From the NCBI GenBank assembly GCA_030704615.1, contig CM060734.1, forward strand, positions 21,824,001 to 21,888,000: a stretch of 64,000 bases of DNA. The letters are read 5' to 3'. A model generated the notes under the pieces. The model saw only the letters and a program-made list of their open reading frames with translations, searched no databases and was not told where the DNA came from. The stretch is from Takakia lepidozioides (lineage: Eukaryota; Plantae; Bryophyta). Both the position numbers and the translations under genes were made by a program. Below, in pieces: positions 2,746-49,332 of this stretch. Every line of letters begins with the position of its first letter. The first letter of the stretch is position 1.

Positions 2746-4271
2746 GGGTTCACATCAGCAATGAAGCACAAAGGTGGGTCTCAAACATTGTACCTTTTTT
2801 TTGGCTGCTCCAGAAGACTCCCCAATCGCCGGGGACCCTTTGCGCTTCGGACTGCTCTCTACGCTGAGCATGTTCTGGAGCATCTCCCCCATCCTCTTTT
2901 CCACTATCTAGCTCTTCGTGAGGCCAGCATCAACATCATCTTCGGCGTCTGTCTCTCCCTCGGATGCAGTCTCCTCCTCACCTGTTCTTGGATGTATGGC
3001 GGACTGCTGTTCTTGTCCAGATTCCTGCTCTTCCATCGTCAGACTTTCCTCTTTGCCATCTTCTTTGCCCTTTTCCTCTTCGTCTACTATTTCCATCCTC
3101 ATTCTATATCTGGCTCTATTCATGTTCCTAGTGCTCATGAAATATAATGACTTCCTTCTCTTCCTCCTCCGCTGGAAACAAGGGCTCCCCACGCTGCCTC
3201 TAGAGCTCTCCAGTTTGACGTTTGCAACAAGGGTTGCTATGGCATGTAATCAAAATAAAAATTGGACATTGTTAACCGTATTTGGATGCGGGTGTTATCA
3301 TTGTGGGCGAACGGAATTCATCCATTTCGACGTCTTTGTATTGTCCAAGAAATAAAGTGCTAGAAAAAATGTACATCCGTTACATGTACTTGTGATATAT
3401 GTCAGATGTACTTCGCCGCCTGCCAATATATGGCAACCTTCTTGCATTCTTTCAAATTCGGAAGTGTCGTATAAATCTAATGCTAGTTCAATTTTGTGCA
3501 GTACTTGCAGATTCGCAATAATTGTTATGCTTCACATATGCATCCACATGTGTTCTACTGCCTACTCTTTGGTTTGCATTTTGCCGTCACCGTCGCAATG
3601 TGGTCATTCGGTATAAAGGGTTTTGTCGGCAATGGTCATGTGTTGCACACATTCGTGCGAGGTGTCTCCCAGAGTGTCAGTGTTTGTGCTGTGCTCTTCT
3701 GGCACAGCACAACCTCATTACATTCGGGGTCTTCCTGTTTACTGCTCTCCAGGGTTGTTGTCGTCTTTCCATAATGGATGGTTTCATGTCATGTTCAGGG
3801 TTTGTTTTTCATCCAAATACAGCACGGCTTCTTGTGGCTTCTTGTCTTTGAAAACAGTTTTTCTGGTTGGTGTCTCTTAGTGTGGTTGTCTGCGAAGTTT
3901 GGTGCATGTCATTCCTACATCCTTTGCATGCATCGCCCGCAGTCTTTGGGTTAGTGCTAACCTTATTGACCTCAGTTTGTTTGTGGTGGATCCCCTTTCC
4001 AGAATTACGGGCTATCAGTTCGGGGATTCCGTTGTGAATCGCAACTTTCAGTCAGTGGAGGAAAACATGTCGAGGGAGCGAGATAGACTCGCTCGATTTC
4101 ATTCCAATGCAGGTAGTCTTCCACTGACTACCACTACAGACGACGATGGGTTTGCAGTTGTTCATGAGGATGAGCTGGTTACAGTGTTCCCGCTGGAATT
4201 GGGTTCTCTGCTATTCAAAAAGAGGTGTATGACGAGGATGGGAATTTGGATTCTGGGCACTTGGAGAACCA

Positions 4272-5700
4272 TTGGTTGGCGAGTGTGGAAGGACGTGGAG
4301 AGTCCTTCCAGGCACATACCGTGTCCTTGGAAAAGAGAGAAGACAATCAGCAGGATCAGTAGTTACCCCTGGCACTGCAGCATCAGTCGTGCAGCAGAAG
4401 AGCACAGGTCATGTGAAACAAGAGGTGAGCACATCCACTACATTCGTGACTCTTTCAGACTCGTCCTCAGAGGATGTTTCTGAGATTCCTCCGCCAGTGC
4501 AGACTCCCATCTTGGATGATGACGAATTGCAGGAGATAACGAGTGTCATTCCGAAATTGAAAGTCCTCGCAGGGGTGCCTGGGTGCAATAACGAGTTGCG
4601 TTTTGTTGATTGGGAGTCCCTTCGTGTGCAGCGGGTTCAATACATGCCAGCAGAGTTTGATGGGGACATCTTGTTTGAGCTCAACCCTCCCACATCTTCC
4701 AGTGGACTGGCTGGGCTTCTGCAGGGCATGGACAAGAAACATGACGGACACCCTTGGTGCAGGACAAAAACATCGAACATCCACAACGACATTGGATTGA
4801 AATTTCGAAGGTCGATTTGCGTTGGGCATTGCAAGTTCGTGAATATTTCTTGCCCTCGGCTGAGAAACAGCGCTAATCGGCTGATCACGAATCGGGTGCA
4901 GATCGGGTGCAGATCACGAATGCAAGATGGAATCGGCTAGAATTTTGCAGGCTTGGGTGACTTGTATCACCGAAGTCCCTGCCCCGGGATATGGACGGAT
5001 TTACACAGTGCTGTCTATTGGCTCAATTCTTCATGGCAAAGAATATCAGGTTACCGTGGGGAGTTTCCCTAAATGCACTTGTCCGGATTTTGTAACGATG
5101 CGTGAGGGCGCTCTCGGCATGAGAAGGAAGTGGGTCCCCTGCAAGCATCAATATTACATATACCTTGTAATTATGTGTTGCGACGGTAAGAGAGACCAAT
5201 TCATTCACCAAGCCACACTAGGCTACGGAAAAGTCATCACCCTTCTGCAGCGGGACACCTCACATGGGGCTCTGCCAAATTCTCTTTAAACACATACGAG
5301 CCATGCCCGCTTCCCATGCTGGTTTCCAGATTACCGTGTGAAGACTTTGCATTTATGACAAACACATTCATTTCGTTCACGGAACCAGGGCAAATGCACA
5401 TGCCATTCATTGTAAGCGTCTATCTGTGAATTGAAATAAAGTGTGTCAATCATTCTGAGCTCAAATCTGCCATATTTTCATATTCCTCTTTTTGTGCAGG
5501 CATTGCAGACATGGTGCATGGTGGCCCCCTTTGTTTTGTCCACGGTAATAGGCCCTCTTCCTGCAATCCTCGCCTATAGGACCTGCTTCTCCAGCAAATT
5601 TGTGCCGCTCATGCTTCCCTGAAGCGTGAGCTCAGCTCACGCTTTGCAGCTTCAACGTGAGCTCAGCTCCCAGGCTCACGGGGCTGGGCTCACGCCGTAG
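4272..5700 (+). mobile_element. Internally deleted MULE-like transposon copy (N-terminal DNA-binding region joined to SWIM finger, DDE core lost)
   Basis: GMDKKHDGHPWCRTKTSNI (ORF 4272-4940) and FPKCTCPDF...CKHQYY (ORF 4927-5289) match the two ends of the 8531-11494 transposase; palindromic GCGTGAGC..GCTCACGC motifs at 5624-5697 near the right end. Confidence 0.8.
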
Positions 5701-5706
5701 CTACGC

Positions 5707-6120
5707 TGATGGTGGACTAACTTGATGCCACCCGCACTGCTCAAGCGTGCATTTGATGGGGTGCAGCGGCCAGCACACCTCACAGTGGATAGCATTTTGG
5801 ACACAGGGAGGCAGTCTCAACGTGTGAGACACGATGACCGGTCGCCTTTGGCAGTGGTCAACAGGGTGAATCAACCACGAGCAGCATTACTTACATTGCT
5901 CAGCTTCCCAGGATCCCATGCTTTTTGGGATGGTGGACCTGGCCTCTTGTGGGATAGCCAGTTGCAACAATTAGTGGAGCCCAATGCTGACGAGCGCGAG
6001 CGAGCGATGGGTTTTACCACTGGTACCACGGCGGTGCCATCTCTTTCTGAGGCATCACGTCGTCAGGTGTTGGGGCAAGCAATGGATCTCAATTGCTTGA
6101 CCTGGATTATCAGCTTGGCT
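5707..6120 (+). pseudogene. DNMT3-like DNA (cytosine-5) methyltransferase C-terminal part (motifs VIII, IX, X) within the Gypsy polyprotein
   Basis: WWTNLMP matches motif VIII (DNMT3A YFWGNLP); DERERAMGFTTGTTAVPSLSEASRRQVLGQAM matches DNMT3A [32 protein letters not shown]. Same frame as RT. Confidence 0.82.
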
Positions 6121-8530
6121 ATGGCTGAGCAACGCAGAGTACAGAGTACACTTCCCTTCATGGTCTCCCCGCCTACCGAGACGGTACAGGCAGCGAGTGG
6201 GGGCGAGCAGGTGAGGACCACGAGGTGCAGGCCGCATCCATGGCACACGTGGGAGGTGCTCGAGGTTCAGAAGGAGTTGGCAGCCAAGGCGGCGGTGATG
6301 GATCAGGTTGGGGATTTTTCTCGGATTGAGGAGGTCCTCAAGAATGGGATGATGGGGCAGGATGAGACATTGTCACTGACAGAGGAGGTAGTGGTCACTC
6401 CTCAAGAGGTTGCAGCATAGCAACCACGGGACGCGTCTTCTACCTCTAAGCCTGCTGGACTCAAGGTTGCAGTCACGGAGGACAACTGGGAGCCTGATGT
6501 TGGACCTATAGTCACCGGAGGAGAGAGACGACGTATACAGCGGTTCTTGAGGGCTTATAAGAACTACTTTGCCTTCAGTTTGAAGGACTTAGGAGCACTG
6601 AAGGGTCAAGAGATTCGCATTGAATTGGCTACTGATACGCCAATCTTTCGGAGACCCTATAGATACAGTGACATGGAGAGGTCCTTGATTCAGATGAGAA
6701 CTCAGGACCTTTGGGAGGCTGGTTTGGTGGAGCTATCTGGGGGAGAGTATGCTTCAGCCACAGTGATGCCAGCCAAGAAGGATGTATATGGCAATTGGAC
6801 GGAGAGACGTATGTGCGGTGATTACCGGCCTGTAAATCGTCAGACCAAGTCCGATAGGTATGCTATGCCGACACCAGAGGAGATCTTTGATGCCATTGGG
6901 CATGCCAAGGTCTTTAGCACTTTGGATTTATGATCCGGATATCACCAGTTGCCGATCAAGGAGGCGGATAAGCAGAAGACGGCATTCTGGGGGATCAATG
7001 AGCACGGGAAGGATTGCCTATACCAGTGGCGGTTCTTACCATTTGGGCTTAAAAACGCTCCTGCAGAGTTTCAAAGAGTTATGGACAGGATTCTAGCAGG
7101 GGTGGAGTTTGCTCGGTGCTACATAGATGACATCATCATCTTTAGTGCTATGGTGGAGGAGCATGAGAGACACCTTCAGGGGGTAAGTTACATCCAGGAA
7201 AGTGCAAGTTTTTCCACAACCAGATTGAGTATCTGGGTCACATGATATATCCTGGAGGATTGGGGGTACAGCAGACTAAGGTAGAGTCCATTGCACAGAT
7301 TCCATGCCCCACGGATGTGAGCCGAGTTCGAGCTTTCATGGGGTTAGTAAACTATTATAGACGGTTTGTTAAGGGAATTAGTGCCATTGCAAAGGCTCTA
7401 ACCAAACTGACCAAGGTGGACCAGGAGTGGCAGTGGGAAGACGAGCAAGAACAAGTTTTTCAAGAGCTCAAGGCGAGGTTGACCTCGGCACCCATCTTGA
7501 GACGACCTATCAGGGGGCGTCCTTTTCAGCTGCATACAGATTGGAGCATGATGGGGCTTGGAGCGGTGCTCACACAGGTGGATGATGAGGGAAGAGAGTT
7601 CGTAGTGGCTTATGCTAGCCGCTCAAACAACGCTGCAGAGTCTAAGTATAGCTCATATGAGGGAGAATGCTTAGCTGCAGTGTGGACCGTGGCACACTTC
7701 AGGTGCTATCTATACGACAATCTCTTCACCCTTGTCACAGATCACCAACCACTCAAGTGGTTGATGGAGTCGGACAAGCTTACGGGGAAGCTTGCACGGT
7801 GGGCACTTATCCTTCAAGAGTATGACTTTCAGGTGGTGCATCGACCGGGTTTGGTCAATCGGGATGCAGATGGGTTGAGTCACAATCCATGCACGAGCCA
7901 GCAGGATGACACTGGAGCTCGGTGGCATGGTGAGACGGACGAGGAGATGGTGCTCGGATGGCATGCATCTGCATTTCTGTGTATCTTGGTAGCGGAAGAC
8001 CAGGTTGGACCTGCAACAGGGATGATTGTAGATCAAGTGTCTGAGGACCCTGAGGCTAGCAACGAGCAAGGTGGCGCCAAAGATATACATGAAGATTCAG
8101 TTGTGTTGGACTACCTCCGCACTGGAGACACTGCAGCCACTGTGACTACCAAGGAGAGGGATCGGATCCTACAACGAGCCAAGAGGTTCAAGTGGGAGGG
8201 GACACACCTGCTCCGAGTGTGGGAGGATGGTCGAGTGAGGATTGTGCCTCACCCAACACAGCGGGCACGGTTAGTGCGGCATGCCCATGAGGAGTTGGGG
8301 CATTTTGGGGTGCAACGCACTCGTAGTCTACTGCAGGGGCAGTATTGGTGGCGTGGTATGCACACAGAGGTGCAACAATTTGTGGCTAGGTGCATGGTGT
8401 GTGACAGGGTGCGTGCTTCATTCAACGCCCCTACTCCACAATTGCACCCTCTTCCGATCATGGGATTGGGCTATGTGTGGTGTAGTGTGGACAACGATGT
8501 AGTTGTGTAGCGATACGTATGCGCACGACA
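5707..8530 (+). mobile_element. Truncated Ty3/Gypsy LTR retrotransposon: DNMT C-terminus - RT - RNase H - integrase zinc finger - LTR 3' end
   Basis: RT motifs RMCGDYRPVN, LDL*SGYHQL, LPFGLKNAPAEFQ, YIDDII; RNase H FQLHTDWS, YSSYEGECLA, LVTDHQPL; integrase HEELGH...CMVC; truncated at HPLPIMGLGY; 8475-8530 matches the end of the LTR at 48223-48729. Confidence 0.92.
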
Positions 8531-11494
8531 CTACCCATGTGTTGTATCCCGCTGCAATAGAGTATCGACCTCGTTGAAACTCATAGTGGCCTGGTGAATG
8601 AAGTTGTCACGTTTGGGATCGCAAACCATCCTCTTCAAAAATATGAAATACAAATGTTTGCAGGGTATGAATTTACCTCTCTTGCCCAAACTGGTTGATA
8701 GCATATTCACAAAATCACGACATGTACAATTGGGGAAATTGGAAACCGTGATGTCGTAGGTCCTGTCATGAACAACAGATATGGAAGTGATGATTGTGAA
8801 TACCCGACCATATCCTGGATCGGGTACTTCCGTGGTGCTTCCAACACGAGCTTGGAGCATTCTTGCGGACTCCACTTTGCCAAAGTGTTCAGCGGTTGGA
8901 GGGAAACGCCGAACGAGCTTTCCATCTCGTTTGGTTGGCCACAAGTCAGGATTTGCCGGGGGGACTCGGGAGGACGCAGAAGTAGTAGCACATGCATGGA
9001 GTTGGGGTTGTCTCGCAAGGGAAAAGCCTGCTTCCTCCAGCATTTCAATCTCCTGAAATCTGAGATGTGTTCCCAGCTTCACGGGCCAAACGGTTGGAGG
9101 AGATGGCTTCATCACTACTGAAGGACGCACAGTTCCATGCACACATCTGGCACAATCATCTGTGCAGAACCAAAACTTGTGGTTCTTGGCTTCTGGTTGA
9201 CCGTATGGACGCATCAAACCCGTGAAAGTCGGAGTAGGAGTTCGGGCACCATTTCTAGATATAGATGAAGTGTACTTCTTGAAATTAGTTGCCCTGATCG
9301 CTGTACATTTCACACGAGACCCTACACTTGTGCGTTCTATGTGCCAAACGTGGTCGGGGCATGCGGACTCAAGCACATCAAGGGGGTTGTTTCTCTCCTG
9401 CACCATTTCAATGGCACTGTTTGATGCTGGAGCTTGCCGTCGTGTTGGAGGTTCCTCCACAATGGAGGTTCCGGACATGGAGCTGTCATGCAGGGGAACA
9501 CGAGGCTTCGAGAAGTTATCACGGTCTGCCCTGTGTGAATTGGAATCCGAACCAGGTGGAGTGTTCAATTTCCTCTTACAGGAGCCAAATCTCTCCTCCC
9601 CTTCAAGATGTGGAACTCTAGAAACAAGTGGTGTTCCTTGGGCATATTTGTTCACCGCCCGTGCTATCTTGATTGGATCCCCAGATCTGTTTGCAGCACG
9701 CAACATCAACTCCCATTTGTCCGGACCCTTGCCACCAACCCCACCTCGCAAGAAATCACGGTATCGGGTTTGTTGTTGCAAGGCACGTATCAAATCATCT
9801 GTTGTTGCCACATACAAATCCCGACCTCATTTCCCAGACTGCTGCAACCATGCATTGTGCACAATTTCTGCCAAATTGCAAGATGGCATGTCCGTCATTT
9901 CCTCAATGGACATGTTCTGCAAAGTAGAGAACCACACTTCAAAACAGTGAACAGAAAACAACATAAAGAAAGCGAGGAGACAATAAAATGGAAAGTAAAT
10001 GTATGAATAAAGCAAGAAATATAAGCCTCGTACCACTGCCATGGCTGCTCCCCACTATCTATACCGGAAATGCCAAAATGCCAGCCAATCTTCCAATGCT
10101 CTCATACTCTCAAGTGATGCAGCTCCAGAAGAGAACCACCATGCACGAATTGTCTGGAACAAAGTGTCCGCCTCCTTCATTGTTCTAGCATATTTGTACT
10201 CTTTGCACAATTTACGGTGCTGAGTCTGCATCTCTGGTTTGATGTCCGACTTTGTATGTTTTTCCAGAGATTGTGTCCAATGGAATAGACATGTACGCTC
10301 TCTTCCTCGCATTGGCACTTTTGGGTCGCCCGATCCGAAGACAATACGAACAGCATTGAAATTTGCTTGAGCACTATCCACCATGAAACCTGCGAAATTT
10401 GGAGATGGCAACCCATGGCAGCCCATGACACGTATCAGGGAATTCCACATGAGCTTCTGGGATTCCGTATCCTCGGATTGCATGTCACAAACTGCAATTG
10501 TCATAACTCGTTGGTACACTGGATCGTAGACATGACAAGCCATTGTCGTCCAATCCTTCACTCGTTTCACATGATCAAATATAAGAAAACAGTTCTGCAA
10601 GTCCCCAGTCTTCTGCATCCGCTTCACGAGGCTAACCCCACTGCCCTCCCCAACAGTCGACATTTTGAAAAGAAAAACTTTGATGGCACCTTGACCTGGG
10701 AATACATTGTCCTGGATGTAATCGTACTTGCTCACTCGTTTCAACTCCAAAATGTTGTCTATGTAGCCTCTGATAACAGAGCCCATTCTTAATGCATTGA
10801 TCTGATGCCGAATGTTAGGTGAACTCAAAGTGGAGAAATGATCCATGACCAGGTCCAATGCTGCACCGTCAAGTTTAGTCCCCACAGAATCCCCTTCACT
10901 CAAAATATGGCTTTCCAAGAAGGACTTGCTTGCGCCAAGAGCAATTGCAGATGTTGTTGCGGATGGGTTTATCCCGAACTCCTGTTTAATCAACCTCGAT
11001 ACTGTCTCAACACTCTCCCTGTAATCCCCCTTCGAGACAGGATGGTTATGGAATCCGAAATGCACACAAGCTCTTGTCATTGTTTTCAAACGGTGGACAA
11101 CATAGTACATTCTTGCTCCGCAGAGCGCCAAGCAGGATTACACAAGTTTGCAGAATTTGCAGACGAAAGTGTTTGCCGGTGGTGGGGCCGTCCCAGGCTG
11201 AAATGGATTTTCCGCCAGACCCTCCCATTCGCTTTGATTATGAACCCCAGACTGAAGAAAGTGTCTGCAATTCAAATTATCACACCTAAGGTGTCCATTG
11301 CAAACTGTTCTTCTGAAAATAAGCTTGTCATCATTCTGAATATTGGATGTTTTTGTTCTGCACCACGGGTGCCCGTCGTGTTTCTTGTCCATTCCATGCA
11401 TCATGATTGTTACACCTCCAACTCGCGGAGGAGGAGGCAGCTCGAATATGATATCGCCATCAAAAGTCTCTGGCAAGAACTTCACAGGGTTCAT
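8531..11494 (-). pseudogene. Mutator/IS256-like DDE transposase with WRKY/GCM-type N-terminal domain and C-terminal SWIM zinc finger
   Basis: DGHPW...C..C...CVHFGFHNHP; D1 IFDHVK; D2 FMVDSAQAN; CxxH TCLFHW; E in NLAEIVH; SWIM CTCRDF...CKHLY. In-frame stops at ~11138, ~10055, ~9827; probable intron ~10033-9918. Confidence 0.85.
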
Positions 11495-13632
11495 TTGGAA
11501 AGAAAAATAATCAAAGAATCAACTATCATTTAAATTGCAATATGTATGAATCCATCTCAAAAACCTCCCTCAGTCTTGTCATATCCATTGTGCTTTCATC
11601 TACAGTGTATTCATGCGTGCTCCATTTCATGAATGTTTTCCTTTGTTCAACATCCATTGTACATTCATCCTCTGTACTCTTTAATCCACCCCACAAACCT
11701 ACCACATTCATGTCATATACGTTGTGCATTCGTCTAAAGTTTTAGTCATGCATCTTCCTGTCATGAATGTTTTCCATTGCTCAACATCCATTATACATTC
11801 ATCCATTTGACTCTTATCCATCCCTCATTCATCCATCTACATTCATTTTTCACACTCATCCATCTGTTTATCATCCAACTGTACATTCATCCATCCTTTA
11901 TTCATTTGTTGCTTTCAGGTGGGAATGACCACTGCCTTTTATTATGTCGTCCAGCTTGTTTCCGCGGTAAAGGGTGCCAATCCGCAGGAATACACTCCAC
12001 TTCTTCTTGGGCGCGTGGTGACGCGGTATTCAAGTGTGATGACGTGGAGTGAGCCCCGTGATGTGGCATTGGCGCAAGGTGACGTGGCGTGAGCGCAGTT
12101 GCGCTCACGCGACCAGGCTCACGCAGAGGCATCCCTGCACTCGTGCCTCATTCAAAATTCAAGAAAAAAATCCTTTGCTCCGACCGTCAATCGTCACTAG
12201 AATTATCAACTATTCTCCATACCGTATTTTTTCTGACATCCTGGGCAACTTTTAAGCCAGTGGGCCCCCCACTACCCTGCCAATAGCAGCGCACCGTTTG
12301 GATGGGTCATCCTTGCCAGGTGGCAGCCTTACTGCAGGCGGCGGCAGACGCTAGGATGACTTCTATCGGAAAAGACGTAACTCGTGGTGTCACTTTACTC
12401 CAAATGGCTATACTACCATCTTTTTGGAATGTGGACACCTTCTAACAGCCGGGAAAATTACATGTTCAAATTCAATGAGTAAAGCCATTCTAGTTTGTTG
12501 ACATGATGATAGTGGGTAATATGCAACAAATGCTCCCTTAAAAATGGAGGCAATTTATGAATTTTGGTGCCAAGAATAAGAGCTCTTTATGCTACAAACA
12601 ACTTTGTCTAGTCATTGCATGTGAAATATGCATAGTTATCAACAAGCTTCAACTTGGGAAAAAACAAAAGACAAGCCCCCCTGGAGATGTAGGTTGTTCA
12701 TGATCATTGAGAATGCAAAGTGTAACAGGTCCACAACATAGACCACGACAATGCTCCATGGAAACTTGGTGACATGAAATTAATCTACGAATTTGAACTA
12801 TAGTATCACGATCGCAAGTGGAACACAAGAATCTTGCCTTGCATACTTTTGAAAACCAATTTCAATGCAACCGTCTTCCTCCGCTTTATTTCTTCATGCT
12901 TTCTCATCAATTCTCTACTATTGATATTAAGATGGTCTACACTAGAATCTACTAAGAAAAAATTACAGATAGCTATATAAACATGCTAGTGACTACATAT
13001 AGAAAAATTACATTTGGGGACATGTAGTGTCACTTAGCAAAATTATAGGGGCCCCCAACCATAGAAGCACCACAAGTGCACCACCGTTGTGGTTCACCCC
13101 CGCGCCTCATTTATAGTTACTAGGCTAGCTAGGCTAAAATAATCTCAAAACAAACTTATTTTTCTTACCTATTTTGATCCAAAAACAATAGCAATCAGTA
13201 AGATCTTAATGCAAGCGTGCGGTTTGCCTGTGCTTTCGTCATGGCAGGGCGTGTCAGCGGGGCGACTGCGGGGAAGCGAACCCCACGTTCGCTTCGCCGG
13301 GCGAATTCGCTTCACTGTAGGTAAAGTGTATTTGTTTTTCATCTTGCGTAGTAGAAATCAGCTTGTTTTATCCAGTAAAAATGGAGCTGCGTCGTCTCGC
13401 ACATGTTGCGGCGACCTGTGCAAGACCTGTCGTACTGTACTTGCTAGGTTTTGATTTTTTAAGTGTATGCTTTCTCTACAGTAGAGCAAACATGGAAGAT
13501 TCTCTTCCCAGCTCTTTCTTGGGTTATTTTCTAGAAGGAGTTGAAGGGTTTTCCTCTTCCTCTCCTCGAGATGTGCAAAAAAATGTGCAAGCTCTTCAAG
13601 CTCCTCCAAACCATTTGCAGGAAGTCTAAGCT

Positions 13633-14445
13633 TTGAAAAATCATGTACAGATAGTCCCAGCTCAGGAAGATGGTGGGAGACTGTGGACAAATCCCTGCAT
13701 TGAGTTTTTGTTGGATTTGTGGGAGGAGAAACATCGGGAGTACAACCGAGAACACATGAGAGAAGTGAATTGGAAAGAGCTTGCAAAGTTGTTGAACCTG
13801 AACTTTGCAAATCATGTGCAATGGACCTGAAAGCAATGCAGAGAAAAAATCAACAAGATGGAGGACAAGTATATAGAGGAGAAAAAGAAGACTAAGGTGA
13901 CAGGTGCCGTGCCTTCAGATTGGTCTTGGTTTGATAGATTTGACAACATTTGGGGAGGAACCTCGAAAATTAATGTTGTCCCTCATGCTATCGATCAGGG
14001 AGTTTATTCTACTCATATTGAGCCTGTGGAAGTGAGTGATGATGAGGATACTGTTCCACAAACTCAGCAGGAAGATGTACCGAGGACTCCTAGTGAACGC
14101 ATGACTCCTGTTTTTGGTGACGGTGTTGAGGATGTTGCACCTGAGCATGCTGCTTTGGCTAGTTCACCAAGGACCAAAGCTTGCAAGCTCCCTGGTGTGC
14201 AGGGAAAGCCGCATGGGAAAGCAGATAAGAAGAGGAGGCGTTTGTCTGTAGGGTCCTCTGTAATTGCACATGCTATCAAAGACTTCGGCGATGGTGTGAA
14301 AGAAATAAAAAAGTTGAAGATGGAAATGACTGAGAGAATCACTACTCAGATGCTTCAGAGTGAACAGGTAAGGAGAGATGTGATAGTGCAAGGACAATTG
14401 CAGATGGCTGCCCTCTTTGCAGAGGTTTTGAAGCCTAAAGAATAA
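13633..14445 (+). pseudogene. Harbinger Myb/SANT (trihelix-like) DNA-binding protein
   Basis: LWTNPCIEFLLDLWEEK...NWKELA...WT*KQCREKINKMEDKY...SDWSWFDRFDNIW; internal stop at 13828. Confidence 0.85.
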
Positions 14446-14579
14446 TGCAGAGCTTGGTATGGTTTAGGGTGCTGTGTGTGGGAAAGCATCCAATGTTGAG
14501 TTACAACTGCAATAAAAATTTGTTTGATCTCGATACCAAATGGAGTACAGAATAGGCGTTTAGGCCTTAGCTGGATTAT

Positions 14580-15828
14580 CTATCAACCACTGCTCAAACA
14601 ACTTAGTCCTTAATCTTTCTCCTTCTGCTTTTGCAATCTCTCCATCTTTCAGTGTCGGTAATCTATCAATTCAAAAACCCGCCAAACGATCTCTTTTAGC
14701 TGGGGCATTGACAAGCCCTGGCTCAGGAGCACCCCACAACTCACAAAAATTATGCAAGACACAACAAGTTACCGCAATTCTAGCAGCTCTATCAACTCCA
14801 GAATTAAAATGTTTCAGAATAAGCCATCTGGTTTTTAGATATCCAAAAGCATTTTCTATTGTCATCCTGCCTAAGTTCATGCTAGAATCAATCTTCTATA
14901 TGTCAGCAGGATTGCGGGTTTTCCAATTCTTCTGCAAGTATGTGCGGATAGGATAAGCTGCATCTCCAATCAAGTACGAAGTGTATCTCATGCCTCCAAG
15001 TGTGACCACTGGCTCGACATCTTGAACAGTCCTCCATCATGAACCCCTCCTAGTCGGCCCGCACATACATTCCAAAATATCTTGTCTGCATCACAAACGG
15101 CTTGCAGCACAATACTTTGGAATTTTTTCTAGTCTAAAAATCACTAAGTGCAAGTGTGACTCTTTTATTGGGAAGCTCAGCTAAAGGAATGTGACTGCCA
15201 TCAATTGCTCCACAAACATTAGGTAGCCCTGTGAGCTCTTGGAAACGGTTTATAATCTCGTTCAAACGGTCACCTGAAAGGATACTAATGTACTTGTTGA
15301 ACAATTTATTTCTATCAGTTAGAATGTTACAAACAATATCAACATACTTTCGTATGGTTGATGCACCCACATTGAAACGATCAGCCATATGTGTAGCACT
15401 ACACCCATGAGCAAACCTATATAGAACAATGGCCACAATTTTTCTGATCTCTAATTGTGGCCTCACAGGATTAAGAGATCGAGATTGCAAGAAAGGTGTC
15501 AATTCTAAAACTAAGTTGTTGAAAGTTCAAAACTCATTCTGTAAAACATTAAACATTTATTGTCTCTCATTTCAGGTGTAGTATGCCACACGTTTCTTTC
15601 TACATGATCCCAATGCGTGTATTGTCTAGGTTCTTTCCACCACAAGCAAGGTGGATGTCTCTTTCTCTTTGCAATGACACAGAAAATTGGAAAGAAACTA
15701 AACCCTATTGGTGGTTCATTGTCTGCAAGCAAGTGCCTCACTCTGGACTTGAACATTCCACAGTTTCCTAAGGTAACAGAAAGAAGCATCAAAATGAGCA
15801 AAACCCTTCCCATGAGAGCTCGGTCCAT
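14580..15828 (-). pseudogene. Harbinger DDE transposase (HARBI1/ALP1-like)
   Basis: GLPNVCGAIDGSHIPL, VLQAVCDADK, YLIGDAAYP, IENAFGYLKTRW; frameshifts and stops. Confidence 0.9.
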
Positions 15829-16703
15829 TTTTCTATGGTTGGGTTTGGAAAGTTACAAGCACTTGAGCGCGTAATGGCAAGCACCTCATCATATAATGGC
15901 AAACACCTCAGCATGTAAGGGCAAGCACTGAGCTTCGGTAAAAACCAACTCCAAAAAGAAAAATGCGACAGGGCCACCAACCGTTTGCTACATGTGCCGG
16001 GTACAGCCCTTCGCTTCACTCCCTTGACGTTGGGCCCACCGCTGGCGAATTCGCCAGGCGAACGGGAATGAGCGAAGGTGCATGTGCGCAGGCCTACTAG
16101 CTCCTTCGAGAGGCCCCTTTTCAAATCCTCCCCACCCCCTCTTAAGCCGGACTCACTATTATTTTAGAAGAGAGAGAGAGAGGGATGACACCAACTGTAG
16201 TTAGCGTAAATAAAAGCCTCTTTCTCTTGCAGGTAGTGCTCCCGATCGAAGATTTTAGAATACTAATGGTTGTCATGCAATGACAAGTAATTTTTTGGTA
16301 ATTACTTGGTAATGGTGGTAGAACTGTCACTTTGGTGTTGGGTCAATTATTGACATTTGGTGTTTGGTGTCATTCCAATCTGTATCACTCTTGAGAGGGG
16401 TTGGGGAAGACTTGACAAAGAGCAAACAAGCGTACCTTGCTCTCAGAGATAGCCCGGTTGCACAGCCTCCTTCCACGTGGTCAAACAAAAGTGTGAAGTT
16501 ATAAGGAGATCAGCTCCCTTTCACCCGCTATCGTTAGTTGGTATTTGGGATGACATATTGAGTAGGTCTTTTTCTTCAGGTTTTTTCTTTTCTTCTTGGC
16601 TCTCTTTTCTTCATTAGAGCAACTGGTTCATCTTGGGAGATGAGTTGGTTACATGGACGGCCGGCCAAAAGGCTTTTTTTGGGGCGTCCTCCTACCTCAC
16701 TAA

Positions 16704-22010: not shown

Positions 22011-24822
22011 TTATCTGTCCGAATAAAAACCTTCGTAGGGAACCAGTGAGGCAAGATCTGTGCTCGGTTGAGGTAAAAGCCAATCAAAAAATTCTATACA
22101 GCCCTGCCTGCTTAGCCTGCGCTTCCCATAATCTACAAGCATACTCCATAGCTCCCCCACACACCAACCTTCTTTCATTATCCAGTCCACAATCTCCTGC
22201 AAACACCAGTGCAACATAAGATCATAAGAACAAAAATCCAGCCTTGCTTATTACTCTTCACCCTTATTAAGTTAAAACTAGGCTGGCACAAGTTTAGTTC
22301 AGTGATTATCACCAGCAGTTATCTGAACACTTTTGTCGCTATGTACTGACGAGATTAAGGCCAATCTGCGCCACACTTGCATACAAAAGCAGAACCAGAA
22401 TAAAACGAACCCAAGAATCTGCTTAGGTAAGATCACGTTTATAGTGAAACTTTAGGACACTGGCAACTACTAGGGAAGATCTATTGCAAGTACCAGGGTT
22501 ACGTGCAGGAAGCCGTGGATGTTTGACTTATCCTCATGAACAATAGAGCACCTTGAAGAAGAAGAAAGAAAGTATCATATCCCCTCAAACTCTCAATGTT
22601 TTCCAATTAAGATCTTGAGTCTAGGTGTAGACCCTGTAACTGTTCTGAATTTCAATTAGAACGTGTCTACAGTGGTCTTAATGCCAAGGTTGAAATGGGA
22701 TTTTACTTGGCTGTATTTGAGAAGAAAATCTTCAGTCCTCATACCAGAAACCATATCCCAGTAAGTCTGTAAGTTTCTCATTCCTTCAGCAGAGCTTAAA
22801 GCATAAGAATGTTGTCATCCTTCAAGAAATATTTGAATGTAACCTAGCTTTACCTGCAATCTTTGTGCTTCAGGGTTTTTAAATGTGAAATAGAGAACGT
22901 TAGGCCGTCCGGCCTGCGAGGCTGCCAGCCATTGCAGCATACTCTTGAGTTGAAGATTGCCACCAAATGCTCCACACCCCCAGTTTCCAGTTGCGATTCC
23001 AGCAGTAGTCTCGTGACGTGCATGGCTAGTCATATCCCGAGTGTCCAGACTTCTACAGTTTGTATCCATGCTTACATTCCTAGCTCCTTCACTTGTTTGA
23101 TCCCTGCCATCATAGCCCTGATCTTCACTTGCTGCCTCAGTAATATTTACAATATTTGACTGCATGTAGTTGTTGGTAGTTCCAGCTTCCTTCAAACTTC
23201 TAGCATTGTGCTCATTACAGAGGTCCAAGTCTGTGTTTCTGGTATCCACCGTTTCCTTACCTCGCATCTCAACTTGCCCCCAATCATTATAAGAAACACT
23301 CTCAACAAATCCACTGGTGTCGTTTGCAAAGCCTGCTCCACTTCGGGCGCTCTTGGTGGTGTTCCTTGCTTCAATAATGTTGACGCTTGCAAGCCCATTG
23401 CTCGCTTCACCTGATAATGGCAAAGCACTGGCGCCCCTTCTGCATCCAGCAGTTTCGAGAAATCCACAGAAAGCTTTATTCATCTCCCGATCCATCAGAT
23501 CAAGGCGAAATTGGTCTTCTCCAGGATGAGAGAGAGCATCAATGGCTATAATGCGAGTCTGTCTGCGGCCCCATGCATCTCTGGAGGTATTGTCAAGATA
23601 ATCACCTGTAAAGCGAAATCCTGATGCATAGCCTTCGTAGGAGCTAAATCTCTCTGCACCGACAATTTCAATGGACTCGTTATCCGCCATAGCAGGCAAA
23701 AAAAGCATTCCCGCAATGAGCTCCGGGCTGATCATGAAGCGAATTTCCTCCTGCATGCATGTGAACCATCTTTTATATACAACCCAAACCAACGCTAACT
23801 GGGGGAGGACGGCACCTTATCTGAGCCAGTGCTCCAATCAGCAGGCCTGAGCTACGAAGGCATGGATGCCCTAAGCTTGAAGAGCATACCATTCCTCAAA
23901 AAAACTGTAATACAATCTAACAGTTCGAATTCGCACTGTTGGAGAATACCTGTACACAGCCCTCCCTAAGAGCTCCGCCTCCCAGAAATTTGTTTGCAAA
24001 ATCGACCTGCAAGTATTCATGGCCGGCGTTTTCTATGCTTCCGTCTTCCATCACTGTGATAGGGCAGAGAGGAGACTTACTATGGCACCAAAAGGAGTCA
24101 GAAGATCCTTCGCTTCGAGAGGGAAGTACTTTCCGCTCGAAGGATACCATGCCTTGTGGCATTCTTCCGCATACGCGCTCAAAATAGTTTACGATACATA
24201 GCATCTTCTGCTCTATGCGCTCGCCACGCTCGAAAACCCCACCAAAAAGTCTATCAAAATTAATATCGGGTAATCGGTCCCTCCTCCTTTCTTGTGTGGG
24301 ATAGAGACAGAAGAAGGAGCATGCTAACAGCCCCGCCACCATCTCCTGGCTCAAAAGTACCAGACCAGCTTGTTGAGGGTGCATGATCTGCAGTACCATG
24401 TCCGAATTCAATGCCATTTGCAGGGAACCGTCTTCAGCCACATCGTGCTTCGAAGAGATGCTGGAATTGTGAGTCTCGAGTAAAACGGGTAGATGGAGTG
24501 CAAGCTTGGCCATGGCTGGCAGTGTGGAATTGAAGAAAATCTGAGCATTTTCATAAGGCATTAGATCGTCAAAGAAAAGAGTGAGTCCAGCTGCGGCGCT
24601 ACCAGACAAACTGGTATGGGGGAACCCACTCTCTCTTCGCATATCCACGATACAATCATACAAAGCTTCTCCGCTGCTGCTTTGGCTAGTCATGGGCCCT
24701 TCTGCCAGGCCCAGCAGTGCACGCTTCACAATCTCTGGCCATGCGTATGCTCCAGTCACGCTATCTTTTGTCACTGGCAAGAATGCATCCACTGATGAAA
24801 CCCTACCACCCGACATTGCCAT
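22011..24822 (-). CDS. PARG: Poly(ADP-ribose) glycohydrolase; exons 24822-23950, 23750-22854, 22196-22011
   Basis: VDFANKFLGGGALREGCVQ|EEIRF signature split by a GT-AG intron; YEGYASGF; ATGNWGCGAFGG; C-terminal WCVGELW exon; frame intact across junctions. Confidence 0.93.
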
Positions 24823-25533
24823 GCATCTCACACAACACCTGCATTCATGACTTTAGCCCCTGCTTGCCAGTCTAACGTGCATTTTGAAGTTCAATGGTAT
24901 CACATGCGCATCTCGGTGTAAGCACACCACTGCTCTGGTATGGGCCGTGAGTTGAGCCATCTACAAAGAACTTTCAATCTGTAGTTCTGTGGGTTTTCAG
25001 CATTGTGAAACTGCTCTGGTGTGGACGGTGTGATGAGCCATCTACAAAGTACTTCTGTGCAAGGCTGTGTGGATACCAGACACCTTTGGTTGCAAAACAT
25101 TGTGTGAAGTCTGTACCTACATACTGACAAATTTTGGCCAAACATACCCTAACCCTTGTTAAGCACAAATGCAGATACTAAACATCTTGAAGCACAGGGT
25201 CAGTTTTCCTGCACTTGCGACATCAGGGATTCAATTCTGGACAACTCCTGTAACAAAGTTAGCCATATTGCTATTGGGGGATGATCATGTGCATGAAATG
25301 GTGATCGCATGGCACCTCACAAAAGAAACTGTGCTGCCAATACCCGAATGAATCCAACTTTACTCTTCTGATACAAAAAATAATGATGAGCCACCCCCTA
25401 AGTTCCATCCTCATGTTTGAAGCAACACTCTTTCTTGAGCAGGCAGGCCAAGCATGTTGAGTAGTGGGCTCTACAATTCAGCTGGGGGTTAAACAATCTT
25501 TTAACTTTCCATCTTTCAAGCACCTTGCCTATT

Positions 25534-28479
25534 TCACCAGTAATCCCCGCAAGAACAAACTCCATCTTGGAAGTGGTGAAAACGGTTGGCATCCCTTACA
25601 ACAATTACAGGGCGAACAATCTTGGATATGAACTTGAAGGCGGTGTGGCAGTCACCACAGACCCGAAGGTTCTTGATGATATGGATTGGTGTCCCGGGAG
25701 GTGTGCTGATCAGTCCAAAAGCCATGGCCAGCTTCTCACTGTGGTAGCAAAGAGATAATTCCTTCTGTTCCTCCTCCACATCATGCAATACAAAGTGCGT
25801 GTCCGGCACATACCCAGTCTCTTCCATTTGCTCCGCCAATCTCCTCAGCTCAGCATGGATCTCCTCCATTTGGGGATGTGACATGTCTTCTACAACAAAC
25901 GTATGCACTCGGTCATGTACCTCAATGCAGCTGCGACCTGGCTCCTTTCTGACCCCTCGGGCCTGCATAATTTTTCTCACCTTTGCTGTATCGTCCCACC
26001 TGCCGGCAGCAGCATAGATGTTTGATAGCAGCACATAAGTTGCAGCATCCTGTGGATCCCACTTAAGAAGGCATTGTGCCACATGTTCTGCTACACGTTC
26101 TGCTACATCCACCTTACCATAAATTCTGCAGGCACCAAGCAAGGCACCCCACACTGCACCACCCGGTTTCATCGGCATTTTATGGATGAAGTCCTCTGCC
26201 TCATCCAGTCGGCCTGCACGGCCAAGAATGTCCACCATGCAGCCAAAATGCTCCACCGTAGGGGTGATTCCATGATCTTGACTTATGGAATCAAAGTAGT
26301 GCCAGCCTTCAGCCACTAGGCCCACATGGCTACATGCAGAGAGAATACATACAAAAGTGATACTGTTCAGCTTCAAGCCTTCCTGTTGCATTTCTTCAAA
26401 TAGTTGTAGAGCCTCCATACCATACCCATGCTGACCATACCCTGCAATCATCGCACTCCAGGAGACCACATCTCTTTTGGTCATATTGTCAAACACTTGG
26501 CAAGCTTCCTTCATGTTCCCACATTTGGCATACATGTCCACAAGGGCAGTCTGCAGAACGGCACCCTGTTCAATTCCAGCTTTGATGATGTCAGCATGGA
26601 CCTCTTTACCCTTTTCCAGGGCTGCCAGGCTGCCACACGCATTAAGAGCACAAAGGAATGTGACCCTGTCGGGTGTTACCATTTCCCGTATCATTTGTTC
26701 ATAGATCTCTAAAGCTTCCCTACCACAGCCATGCCGAACACATCCTGCAATCATCACACTCCATGAGACCACATCTATTTGAGCCATATTATGGAAGACT
26801 TGACGTGCGTCCTTAATAGTTCCGCATTTGGCATACATGTCGACAAGAGCAGTCTCTAGAATGATATCTGGGGCTATTCCAGCTTTGATGATGTCAGAAT
26901 GGACCTCTTTGCCCTTTTCAAGGGCTGCCAGGCTGGCACATGCACTGAGAACGCAAATGAATGTAACATTGCTTGGAGTCACCCTTTCCCATGTCATTTG
27001 GTCATACAGCTTGAGAGCTTCCCTACCATACTCATGCTGAGCATATCCTGCAATGATTGCATTCCATGAGACCACATCATGTTCACCCATATTTTGGAAC
27101 ACTTCACATGCATCCTGTATGCTCCCGCATTTTGCATACATATCAACAAGGGTGTTCTCCAGAATGATATCTGGGTCAACTCCAGCTTTCATGATGTCAG
27201 CATGGACCTCTTTGCCCTTATTCAGGGCTTTTAGGCTGGCACATGCATTCAGAACACTAATGAACGTGATCTTGTTGGGCATTGTCCCTTCCTGTATCAT
27301 ACAGCTATACATGTGAAGAGCCTCCCTCCCACACCCATGCTGAGCATATCCTGCTATCATGGCACTCCATGAGGCCACATCTCGGTGGACCATATTGTCA
27401 AAAACTTGGAGTGTGCCAATCATGCTTTTGCATTTGGCATACATGTTAAGAAGGCTATTCTCCAGAATAATGTCTGGTGCAATTCCAGCTTTGATGATGT
27501 CAGCATGGACCCCTTGGCCTGTTTTCAAGGCCACCAGGTTGGCACATGCATTGAGAACGGAAGTGAATGTGACCTTGCTGGGCATCAGCCCTTCTCGCAT
27601 CATTTGCTCATACATCTCCAGAGCCTCCCTACCACACCCATGCTGAGCATATCCTGCGATCATCACATTCCATGAGACCACATCTCGGTGAACCATATTG
27701 TCAAACACTTGACGAGCATCCCTTACACTGCCTCATTTAGCATACATGGCAGAAAGGGCGGTCTCCAGAATGTTATCTGGTGCAATTCCAGCTTTAATGA
27801 TGTCACCATGGACCTCCTTGCCCTTTTCCAGGGCTCCTAGGCTGGCACACGCCTTGAGAACACAAATGAAAGTAACCTTGTTGGGGATCACGGCTTCCCA
27901 TATCATCTCCTGATAGATCTCCAAAGCCTCCCTACGAAACCCATGCTTTGCATATCCTGCCATCATTATAGTCCACGTAAACACACTTCGTTCAGGCATT
28001 TTGTCGAACACTTGTCGTGCATCCATCAAACTTCCACACTTGATATACATGTCCACAAGGGTGTTGAGTAAAAAGATGTTTGGCTTGAATCCAGCTCGAA
28101 TAATGTGGGTGTGCACCTGCTTTCCCATTTCCAGGTCGTTAACTTTGACACACACCCGCAACAGACAAACATAAGTATTGTTGTCTACTGAAATGCCTTG
28201 GTGATTCAAAATGTACAGCGCCTCTTTCATTCGACCTGCCTTACCCAGTGTCCTCACATCCCCACACGTGGCACAAGAGTTCATGTTGACTCCTTGCGTC
28301 TGTCCTTCACACCAGGCTGGTTGATACTCAACTTTGTCCATTGTTCGTGTTTGGGCAGGCTGTGTCCTTTGACAATGATCTGAACCATCAACAGATAGTG
28401 CTCTGCCTTGTACCATGGTGGCTACCTCTGCTGTCACCCAAAGAGGGGTTGACCAATTGTGAATGCACAGGGCCTCCAT
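25534..28479 (-). pseudogene. Intronless PLS-class PPR protein with E1-E2-DYW (C-to-U editing factor), one premature stop
   Basis: L-S-P repeats, P2-L2-S2, PG box PGRSCIE, HSEKLA, CGDCH, terminal DYW. ORFs 27733-28479 and 25534-27708 are in frame, separated by MYAK*GS (TGA at a conserved Cys). Confidence 0.92.
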
Positions 28480-31400
28480 CTTCTGCTACCCCCAACCAAC
28501 GTCCACACAGAAACTCGCCTTATAAATTCAATCCAAGTATAGTCAGTACTGCTTTTAGGTATGTCTGGAGACTCCTGAATGATGGAAAAAGACAGTGAGA
28601 GTCTTTGTCATGCTATTACAAAATAAATCCAGGAAGAAAATAACCATCCATCTGGGTCGCGTTTTCCTGCAGTGTCTAGAAACACCTAACCATAATTTTC
28701 TTAGTCTGCATTTGTTGATATGGGAAACATGGACCAAAACAAAACAACCCAAACAAGTGCGAAGGCTGACCTGAGTTGGCATCTTGCAAGCATATGCCTG
28801 CACACTCGCTCTCTTCAGATATTTGCACTTTTGCACAGACACCTGGTGCAGACAAGAAATCCAAGAGTTCCTACATGAATAACAGTGGTCACAAATTTTC
28901 TTACTTTATTCAAGTGCTGATTTGTCAGCGAAGTGGAAATAAAAGTGACCCAAGGCGATAACCAGTCGATCACACTATCCTCTGACAAGCACTGAAAATG
29001 CAAGCGATTTGACCTTGAACAAACAATCTCAAAGCACTAGAACTTCCTTCGTCCCGGGCACAACGGGCCATTCAACCTGAATCAAAACATGTTTATTCAT
29101 AGTTGTCTACAATCGCCGGTTATTGAAACTCTACTACCCGTGGTATCAATATCTTAATATCCAGTTTGATACCCGGCCTATAGATACCCTGTTCACTCAA
29201 TACTGCCCAACAACACTGCTAGATACGCTGCAGCTGTATGAGCTACTAAATAATTCAGCTGCCCAACGGCGTCATTGCATCCAATAAATCTTGTCTGCAG
29301 AAAGCAACCTCATAAAATGCAGCTTCACCATTCCGAAGAACCTAATGTTATCCAACCGGTTTTTGAAGGGAAAACCTAAAACCTAATGTCCCTGTATATT
29401 CAACATTCATAACTAATCAAGAATTGAAGAGCCAGAAATTACCCCACTCAAAAATGAAGATCCATCGGGACGTTCCACATGGTTGACGGTGCACGGTCCC
29501 ATCAGCCATTGGCATGTTGCCAAAGCTCAATGAGCTGTTGCACCAACATCCCACACTCGATGAGATAGTGTGAGTGATAGAAAGAGAGATATATGGAGCA
29601 CTAAAATCTCCTAGCTGTAGTGTTGTGGCCATAGACCAGCGCCTGGAGTGGATGGACATGAGAGGGCTGACAGAAGGGGGAGGGAAGGTTGTTTGGGGGC
29701 GATGGCGGCGGTGGAAAACAGTATCGGAGTTGGTGCCACCACTGAAGTAGAGAGAGAAAGGCACAAGAACAAAGACAGACACATTCAAGACTAAATTCAC
29801 ACACCACACTCTCTCTCAGCTTCCCTATTCTCACTCTGGGCGTGACCAAAGGCAAGTTCTGGATCAGCTCATAACCCAGTGGGTTGTACCGTTGTAACGT
29901 TGTAACCCACAAGCAGCTGGAGCTATATTGTACCTGGACTATGCACACAAGACCAATTGGTGAATCTCTCCTTCTCACCACCGGAACAAGAAACGTTGAA
30001 TCTTCCTCTTTCACCCTCACCATATGAAATGGTTCATCACAAAACAAGAGTGCAGTACCACATAGCATTGCAGCTGGCTTCGGTCCCCCAAAGGACTCTA
30101 TGAGACGCTTATTCTAGCGACGACCGAAGGTCGGAAGCTAGTTTAGCGTAGAGCAGATATAGGGTGCCAAGTCATCGTCGCCACGTCATTATCGCCATGT
30201 CATCGTCGCCACGTTTCGTGGCCACGTCATCGCCTTCGTCAATTTCCTTGGAACCTGCCCCAAAATAACCAAGAGAGGCGTCCCTTGGCACTATGTCCCA
30301 AGACTTTCATGAAAGTACCGTGGGCCCGGGCTGCCGTCCTCATGCCCGGCCTGGCTTGTTCCTGGCTCCGTCCCACGTCGGCTCCTTTTGATCGTTGCCC
30401 TGCCTTCTAGCTAGCTCCCTGCCACGTCGCGAAGTAGATTAGATCTAGATATCAAACGAGATATCGTAATCACAACTTTGGGCTTAAGCGGAGCCCGCAA
30501 GTAAGAAATGATAAGTAGTTTCTGCCATCCGAGCTCCCATCTAGACTGCGTTGTTGAATGAAGCAAAGCCTGCTTGCAAGCAGGTGCAGGCAGTTGAAAC
30601 CCATCAACAACCCATCAAAGTTCAAGAATCAGCCCTCGGGATCAAGCTTGTCAAATAAGGTAATCGACGAGTCCGCTGCAGGTATCAGTGAGATAAAAAC
30701 ACTGGTCAACAGAGGAAGTAGAAGGGACGGGACAGTTGGACCTCGGCTGGTATGATCGTGTCGATCTAATTCTTGGAGAGTGCATGTCGAATTCGGGGCC
30801 ATCACCCTTTCTGGTCCAAGTCCAGACTCCAGATTCATACTGCACAGTTTCTGAAGTGAGAGCTGCTGATAGCTTCACGTCCATCCTGCACGTCTGACTT
30901 ATCACACTCTTTGACTCGGAAAAGTAGTAAAACCCTCTAAAGCTGGTCTTCCTCCAGATCTTAGTGACATATCTGTTCACCACTAACTGGTCGAAGAAAT
31001 GTAGAGATTTCGTGCTCTTGAAAATGAGTGCTTCAGAATAAAATTGCTTGTAGATCCACGGGTAAGGGGTTCTTCTTCAAGCGAGTGCGTTGGCTTCCAT
31101 CACTGCCTCATGGGAAACTGGGACCCTTGACAACAGTAACCTCCTGCACGAATAACTTGCTCCAATATGATCGCCCCGGTGTTGGGGCGTCGACATCAAG
31201 CGAAGCCCGCGGGCCAGCAAGAGTGCATGGGAGCGCGTCGCAGGAGGAGCTGACCTGGCAGCGGGGCCAACCAGCAACCCAGCCCGGGCCGACGGCACTA
31301 TCCTAAAAGGGCTTGGGAGGGCCAAAGAGAGGCGTCTTACAACGCCGAGGGAGACATTTGCAGATTATGAGTACACCGCATGAGAGCTGGAATTTGCACG

Positions 31401-31863
31401 ATGGTGGGACAACCGCAATCGCAAGGTGTGGCTTTTCTTAATGTACAATGTGAAGAAGTTTGTCTTGCAAATGTCGGCTCTTGGCTCATGTTAGTACCAC
31501 GATTTGATATTCTTCCTGATGTTTACAAGGTTCTTGGGAGAGTCAGTTTGGTCTTAGCTAACAGACCGTGTTTCAATTTCTGCTTGCTCGTGGTGGTTAT
31601 CACAGACCAATCCGACATCACCTGACTACAGACACAAGCAGCACACACAAGAGGTCTTTTTGGATTGATGGTCGGTCAAATCCTCCATGGGTCATGACAT
31701 AGGGTCAAGGACAATGTAGTGAGGGCACTTTCTTCTTCGACCTTTTCAGCCTGTTTTGCCCTCTCATCAGACTCGGCCCTGATATGCATATTGAATTCTG
31801 ATAGTTAGCTCGTTGGGTAGATCTGTGGTGGTTTGGAGTGACTTTGACAAGTTATGTGGCAGC

Positions 31864-48908: not shown

Positions 48909-49332
48909 TCGCCCCCCTAGCTGGTGCTTAGGTCCCTCTAAGTCCAGGTAGCCACAAGATGTGATAGTGACCATAGCCTCACTAAGTCCTCCACCACTGT
49001 CCCTACTACACTCAAACTCGATAGATCAAGAGGCCGGGTGCAAGAGTTGCCCCATTATTAGTCGCCGTCTTGCAACCTGTGAACTTGAGCCTGAGATCTC
49101 GTGTATTGACTCCTATGAGCTCGGCCTCCTATGTCTTGTTAGCTGCCTCTAGTCATGTCCATTGTCACTATCCCAAGCAGTGTGGACATAACCAATCTCC
49201 ATCAGGAACCCTCTCAAGAGGTGGTGTCAAGCATCCCATATGCCAACCTCTTGAGCATCGATCACACACCAGTATAGTGGCTGTCCCTTTGGCAGACCCA
49301 CAGAGCATGCACCTCAAACCTGCAGGTACCAC

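Follow-up and report, generated by a model that had tools for sequence, protein, structure and literature searches.

A 64,000-nucleotide stretch of the genome of Takakia lepidozioides (GenBank assembly GCA_030704615.1, contig CM060734.1, positions 21,824,001 to 21,888,000 of the forward strand; hereafter the window) contains, at 5709-8530 on the plus strand, a truncated copy of a Ty3/Gypsy retrotransposon in which part of a DNMT3-type C5-cytosine methyltransferase precedes a reverse transcriptase (RT). An earlier note, made from the letters of this stretch alone, had pointed to such a fusion in a land-plant genome, and the frame that it described as shared by methyltransferase, linker and RT is borne out: one frame is common to the open reading frame (ORF) 5710-6420, as now delimited, the segment 6421-6933 and the RT segment 6934-7185. 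The assignment to Ty3/Gypsy is upheld by Pfam matches to RVT_1 (E = 1.8e-15) in the RT at 6547-7184, to RT_RNaseH (E = 1.9e-35) over the RT C-terminus and RNase H at 7185-7880, and to Integrase_H2C2 (E = 1e-16) in the HHCC zinc finger of the integrase at 8253-8472, all on the plus strand, and the Ty3/Gypsy order protease (PR)-RT-RNase H-integrase is found in the family at large.

Read from its 5' end, the copy opens with the C-terminal half of the methyltransferase (5709-6132, +), comprising the end of the motif VIII region, the target-recognition region and motifs IX-X, and continues with a variable linker (6133-6417, +), an in-frame stop in the context TAG CAA CCA (6418-6426, +) and a second linker (6427-6546, +) that is open, lacks an AUG and may form a long stem, its folding z-scores being not significant. 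Besides TAG 6418-6420, the frame is broken by TGA 6931-6933 and by a 28-nt deletion at 7184/7185, both within the RT, and a large deletion at 8472/8473 took the integrase core and a PHD finger. The last 58 nt of a terminal repeat, B (8473-8530, +), follow directly; they are 88-89% identical to both B copies of a second element copy in the window (48223-48281 and 48733-48785) and end in CA, the end motif of the relatives, which together with mixed flanks behind 8530 marks the element's own 3' end.

At the other end, element DNA begins at 5709 and not at 5707, where the earlier note had placed it, while the note's remark that the 5' half of the methyltransferase is absent stands; that half was not found elsewhere in the 64-kb window, and sequencing runs X5 and X7 show loose ends before 5709. 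A high-copy SWIM-domain repeat, which we take to be Mutator-like, adjoins the copy at 5708, and the segment 5620-5708, considered as a degenerate motif VIII, was rejected as belonging to this neighbouring repeat. Two SWIM-finger remnants of transposons of this Mutator-like kind, at 3881-5708 (+) and 8531-12130 (-), flank the Gypsy copy and face it, both with hairpin-rich GCGTGAG..CTCACGC ends (5622-5700 and 12084-12130), and the surrounding locus is a tangle of nested elements.

Contigs assembled from four sequencing runs show many family copies (33,183 pieces aligned from run X1; contig depth was not taken as copy number). At TGA 6931 a sense codon is found in >99% of the contig depth; other copies carry 28 more bases at 7184/7185, run on into the integrase core behind 8473, and have motif VIII codons 5' of 5709. 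For example, one 5009-nt contig from a second organism covers all of 5709-8473, with 98 differences, and extends beyond it at either end. Since other copies are intact at the broken sites and keep methyltransferase and RT joined, the link between the two is a trait of the family and the window copy is dead, as the earlier note had held, through the TGA, both deletions and the loss of its 5' half. Among 230 confirmed loci, the 80 best were analyzed; the fuller relatives have the order Gag-PR-DNMT-stop-RT-RNase H-integrase-PHD, with the DNMT3 domain inside the Gypsy polyprotein region, and in dozens of loci DNMT and RT share a frame, without introns. The locus L029 is open over 2162 codons but for two stops. 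Homologs, spanning contigs and the many loci bear out the recurring family that the note had envisaged.

Identity and range of the methyltransferase module

A DNMT3-type cytosine methyltransferase is represented in the first 141 codons of the window copy by its C-terminal half. WWTNL, ERERAMGF and RRQVLGQAMD, which take in motif signatures read in the earlier note, are all present in the translation; the loss is larger than the motifs I-VI given there, in that H-R-x-R of motif VIII is also gone. The PF00145 match that the note anticipated for the fragment did not appear: the 236-codon ORF alone gave no match in Pfam and no sequence match in the PDB, since all that it retains of a C5 methyltransferase lies behind motif VIII. 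Among 34 longer homologous proteins (best E = 9.5e-69, 59% identity), 27 carry PF00145; the hosts of the 34 include Marchantia polymorpha (12 proteins), Calypogeia fissa and Sphagnum fallax (one each), and in an exhaustive search E <= 0.001 was reached by 759 representatives. Aligned to the complete domain of locus L001, the window fragment covers residues 198-343 (146 columns, 68% identity). In the relatives, motifs I, IV (PC), VI (ENV), VIII, IX and X follow in linear order.

A profile of 14 relatives matched DNMT3A with E = 8.7e-25, versus 7e-14 for plant DRM and 3e-8 for M.HhaI. The structural model of the complete L001 domain (predicted local distance difference test score 94.5) retrieved DNMT3A/B with E = 1.3e-18 in one structure search and superimposed on human DNMT3A/B with Z = 28.7 and a root-mean-square deviation of 2.6 Å over 274 residues, versus Z = 25.7 for a bacterial CpG methylase. 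The window fragment's own model is weak, with DNMT3A ranked first at E = 0.019, which is not significant. On profile and fold of the relatives the domain is best classed as DNMT3 type, as first proposed. The same linear catalytic domain is described for the host enzymes PpDNMT3a/b of non-flowering plants, which carry a C-terminal DUF3444 in the accessible text of PMC6453930, whereas the element domain lies between protease and RT. Neither a host DNMT3 sequence nor a named Klebsormidium sequence occurs among the matches listed (best 120 of 179), and none of the 34 homologs is a named Klebsormidium sequence.

Between families, the methyltransferase part is 52-69% identical in amino acid sequence and the linker behind it 24-43%, with proportions of nonsynonymous (pN) and synonymous (pS) differences of 0.19-0.34 and 0.73-0.95 in the former and a pN of 0.39-0.55 in the latter; for the window copy and L001, pN is 0.19 versus a pS of 0.74 in the methyltransferase part. 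These values indicate purifying selection on the domain between families. Moreover, the catalytic cysteine motif is kept in 162 of 183 proteins that span it (7/10, 63/69 and 92/104 by architecture class). Speaking against a maintained enzyme, no purifying signal was seen within the decayed family, where nonsynonymous-to-synonymous ratios were 0.69-1.49, values that are uninformative and whose RT part is partly out of frame owing to a frameshift in the reference L001.

Upon inspecting 277 proteins that bear the domain, we found it before RT in 15, after RNase H in 104 and without RT in 158. The second arrangement defines a Gypsy class in which a DNMT of the same subfamily lies between RNase H and integrase and a PHD finger at the C-terminus (P0031, P0141, P0287 and about 100 more; one variant has a Tudor domain and some have a G-patch), no description of which was found in the literature searched. 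Its named member among the matches listed is from the chlorophyte Monoraphidium neglectum, and because this element carries a related DNMT, the module is older or wider in range than charophytes plus land plants. Trees of RT (34 rows) and DNMT (53 rows), built from subsets with two outgroups only, both give a strongly supported bryophyte clade that includes the window copy and place the second class in a separate clade; they agree on the main split, and the two positional classes belong to a single DNMT subfamily and a single RT clade. Two further forms were seen: P0034 (1198 aa), in which a degenerate DNMT-like segment precedes RNase H, seems to represent a further class of retroelements with a decayed copy of the module, and a third, more distant DNMT-Gypsy family lies at L068 9107-9565 (polypurine tract-B1-2 nt-A2-B2). 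A scan of viral contigs gave 55 pattern matches, none of which was confirmed.

The stop codon behind the methyltransferase

In the earlier note, TAG 6418 and TGA 6931 were two point mutations in one continuous Pol frame. This description fits the TGA, which is private to the window copy; the TAG is instead a feature of the family, and the idea of a Pol frame interrupted there by mutation is not supported. In none of the four runs does a variant of at least 1% occur at 6416-6426, TAG-CAA-CCA being invariant while differences lie on both sides. Seventy of the 80 loci analyzed form one sister family, to which L001 belongs and whose linker matches S. fallax P0021; after near-duplicates were merged, 57 copies remained, 49 of which cover the site. 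The stop is kept in 47 of these 49 (34 TAG, 13 TAA) and is followed by CAAC in all 49, versus a mean of 1.1% stops at other codons. With L029 as reference, the stop is kept in 55 of 61 copies and is the only shared one, the next-commonest, which appear to lie at deamination-prone codons, reaching about one third, and no frameshift is shared; a second peak of stops at codon 553, seen with L001 as reference and absent with L029, is due to the frameshift in L001.

The stop and the following C-A-A-C-C are kept in three families though their linkers are only 37-43% identical, and it is likewise within this linker that the ORFs of Marchantia and Calypogeia terminate. Conservation of TAG 6418 places the methyltransferase in a Gag-protease-DNMT first ORF, which the variable linker closes. 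The window copy and L029 (TAG-CAA-CCA in both) match exactly the tobamovirus type I readthrough signal UAG-CAR-YYA, in which, in the accessible text of PMC3542737, UAA works too. No AUG precedes the RT in either. On this pattern, TAG 6418 is quite likely read through at low frequency.

Several observations weigh against readthrough as the general rule. In the L001/Sphagnum family the stop is followed by CAA-CCC, which matches CARYYA at 5/6 positions, and 48 of 49 copies have an in-frame ATG directly behind it, so that reinitiation could occur there; TAA makes up 13 of the 47 stops of this family; and L061 has TAG-TAG-CCA, the second TAG of which is probably a decayed CAG. An RNA stem 3' of the stop was not significant (z = 0.47 to -1.63), with the same pairing predicted in four families and a double change in 4 of 22 pairs. 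Lastly, the relatives P0180, P0298, P0028 and P0032 have no stop between DNMT and RT, which, together with the Klebsormidium DNMT described in the Pol ORF, means that the stop is not universal.

Terminal repeats, priming and the rest of the window

Full loci read A1-Gag-PR-DNMT-stop-RT-RNase H-integrase-PHD-polypurine tract-B1-GC-A2-B2. Instead of two identical full long terminal repeats (LTRs), they have the ends A and B, with a 3' end B-A-B; such A1..B-A2-B repeats were found in L030, L033, L071 and L068 and in the window at 48223-48909. There, on the minus strand, a second truncated copy shows a PHD finger at the Pol C-terminus (49174-49350; PF00628, E = 7.2e-12; 73% DNA identity to the PHD region of L033), a polypurine tract directly before B1 (48910-48925; 85% over 52 nt to the L033 tract) and the split 3' end B1 (48909-48732), GC spacer, A2 (48729-48413) and B2 (48412-48223), with B1 and B2 89% identical and a B|A junction like the palindrome of the relatives, GACA-GC-TGTC. 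This copy is interrupted by an unrelated Gypsy element (49434-57125; Gag, RT, RNase H and a 10-bp tandem repeat), which is strongly depleted in CpG, with an observed/expected ratio of 0.20 versus 0.53 in the DNMT copy.

Full relatives start with TG and end with CA, and of the 8 loci that have both ends, 7 (6 of 7 distinct insertions) show a perfect 4-bp target duplication and the eighth a 3/4 match; a rve integrase and these duplications set the family apart from DIRS and Ngaro elements, which use a tyrosine recombinase and have neither a DDE integrase nor a duplication. Among 15 distinct 3' ends, six are B-A-B, eight are B only and one is cut off, with one insertion seen in both states. An origin of the A..B form from 1-LTR circles was considered and dropped: L051 (B-A-B) and L055 (B only) share their 3' flank, which indicates that A..B derives from the full form via recombination or assembly collapse.

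No tRNA-type primer site follows A1 in the full loci. Instead, a 13-mer after A1 is complementary to a fixed stretch 31 nt behind a TATA-like box, where the RNA may start; the match is 13/13 in L071, a value reached by 0 of 20,000 shuffles, with the best locus picked afterwards. In the accessible text of PMC4600332 and PMC7175516, primer sites complementary to the predicted RNA 5' end are described for Tf1/sushi elements, Tf1 self-priming from an 11-base primer (PMC7175516), and Tj1 of Schizosaccharomyces japonicus also has an in-frame stop upstream of RT. In Tj1 (PMC4600332), however, the stop follows Gag, is needed for activity and is accompanied by ordinary LTRs and 5-bp duplications, whereas in the moss family it follows protease and DNMT and is accompanied by split repeats and 4-bp duplications.

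We somewhat favor a scheme in which the family primes itself in the manner of Tf1, the reverse-transcribed repeat is permuted (B-GC-A), the internal palindrome GACA-GC-TGTC is where integrase cuts, and A2|B2 arises when the two blunt ends of the cDNA join. A permuted repeat implies that integrase must cut this palindrome, and foamy-virus integrase is reported to cut palindromic LTR junctions (PMC1180852, accessible text). Three points count against the scheme: in only 11 of 21 left repeats does the best complement to the self-primer fall at the predicted position; the evidence for it comes from relatives and does not cover the window family itself; and the mirror form A-B-GC-A..B, which the junction model predicts, was seen in 0 of the 15 ends.

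Takakia is expected among the early-branching mosses. In a tree of a single gene with 20 rows, 19 of them selected from 76 matches, the exon of a PARG gene in the window was sister to Sphagnum plus Ceratodon with support 97/90, which agrees with the land-plant host named in the earlier note and suggests an early-branching moss, paralogy being possible. This host PARG lies at 22815-28485 (-) together with an intronless pentatricopeptide repeat gene, presumably of the PLS-DYW type, that is broken by a stop near 27733. The window further contains a tandem array of ~116-bp units with internal palindromes (400-2790); a Myb/SANT ORF with a Pfam Myb match beside a transposase-like ORF on the opposite strand (13630-15850), a pair that we take to be as in PIF/Harbinger elements; long inverted repeats (31863-32432 and 42879-43471; 93%, 10.8 kb apart) that enclose GC-motif tandem repeats and ORFs without a Pfam match; and remnants of a RT and endonuclease like those of long interspersed nuclear elements, on opposite strands (60468-63818).

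Function of the module and alternatives

We propose, with a probability of roughly two in three, that the window copy is a dead, truncated member of a multi-copy moss Ty3/Gypsy family that encodes Gag-protease-DNMT3 up to a conserved TAG, with likely low readthrough into RT-RNase H-integrase-PHD, and in which the DNMT, made at Gag level, likely methylates the element's cDNA in the particle. Gag-protease-DNMT would be the abundant product and RT-RNase H-integrase-PHD its rare readthrough extension, such that the methyltransferase would be made in bulk with the particle protein and placed beside the cDNA. That the enzyme is active and acts on cDNA or on a fresh insertion is, taken by itself, a tentative proposal to which we give slightly less than even odds; a dinoflagellate retrotransposon DNMT3 is reported to methylate CG de novo (PMC5890265, accessible text). 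A long shot is that DNMT marks one of the two identical palindromes (which hold CG and CAG/CTG sites) and thereby restricts integrase to the other; an old green-lineage Gypsy clade with a Gag-level DNMT3 would then follow a logic akin to restriction-modification, which would explain why the self-renewing form A..B-A-B is found and the mirror form is not.

The strongest competitor, though an unlikely one, is that the DNMT is kept for another role, such as trans action on host chromatin or rival elements, nucleic-acid binding in the particle, or a brake on the spread of the element itself. An amount of enzyme at Gag level would far exceed the need of one cDNA, GWEC stands in place of GWPC in many relatives, and de Mendoza et al. 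commit themselves to no role and count a benefit to the host among the options in the accessible text of PMC5890265. Conversely, the catalytic cysteine, ENV and RxR motifs are retained in the relatives, a place in the particle polyprotein is a place next to the cDNA, and the main split is the same in the trees of DNMT and RT.

An arrangement in which the stop merely ends ORF1 and RT-integrase owes its expression to reinitiation, to splicing or to an internal promoter seems improbable to us. It would fit the in-frame ATG of the L001 family and the Marchantia and Sphagnum gene models P0006, P0013 and P0021, which splice across the stop; these models, however, are automatic predictions with differing junctions, an AUG before the conserved RT sequence is lacking in the window copy and L029, the RT stays in the DNMT frame, and bases +1 to +5 after the stop are kept across families. 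About equally doubtful is a DNMT3-like module taken from a phage or bacterial methylase, perhaps captured more than once, to which 229 phage records matching the L001 domain (best E = 3e-13, ~27% identity), a phage-rich cluster ranking third in the Atlas, the Z score of the bacterial CpG methylase and the two DNMT positions in Pol lend some weight; nevertheless, DNMT3A/B rank first by profile and fold and, in trees with two outgroups only, both positional classes fall into one DNMT subfamily and one RT clade. Phage methylases match only weakly. That this one copy captured an exon of a host DNMT3/DRM gene, or that unrelated fragments came by chance to lie side by side in it, could account for the fragment without Pfam or PDB match in a tangle of nested elements, but has a negligible probability in view of the spanning contig of the other organism, the dozens of intronless loci with DNMT and RT in frame, and a linear DNMT3 motif order instead of the DRM rearrangement.

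The closest published system to the Gag-protease-DNMT3 family is KnitGypsy-Dnmt3 of Klebsormidium nitens (PMC5890265), with which it shares, by the description in the accessible text, the Gypsy gene set, an intronless DNMT3-type domain with conserved catalytic residues and DIRS-like A1..B-A2-B repeats. KnitGypsy-Dnmt3 is described there as K. nitens-specific, with DNMT inside the Pol ORF, whereas the moss and liverwort family has a stop between DNMT and RT, which share a frame and not an ORF (P0180 and P0298 do have them in one ORF), and a C-terminal PHD finger. SymbioDIRS-Dnmt3, SymbioLINE-Dnmt, DAM-LTRs and EpiLTRs are also retrotransposons with DNA methyltransferases but, in the accessible texts (PMC5890265; bioRxiv 10.64898/2026.05.21.726589), belong to other retrotransposon classes or carry a DNMT4-related or adenine enzyme, in algal or protist hosts. 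A 2025 paper and a 2026 preprint, in their accessible text, say 'streptophytes' for this kind, citing the 2018 work. No land-plant Gypsy-Dnmt3 was reported in the literature searched, which did not extend to subscription papers, figures or bioRxiv supplements, and within it the kind is found in print only for K. nitens. Target duplications, a polypurine tract and a putative self-primer could be mapped in the moss and liverwort family as well.

The conserved stop after DNMT predicts that the enzyme is a bulk component of the particle and not a minor Pol domain, and the split repeats and target duplications point to integration via an internal palindrome, which is unusual for LTR elements. Such copies inflate or confuse counts of DNMT genes in bryophyte genomes. 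What methyltransferases do in retrotransposons has been a standing question since 2018, the hosts having been algae that lack genetics; with the family present in Marchantia polymorpha as long open Gag-PR-DNMT models, in a plant that is transformable and has methylation mutants, the question becomes testable.

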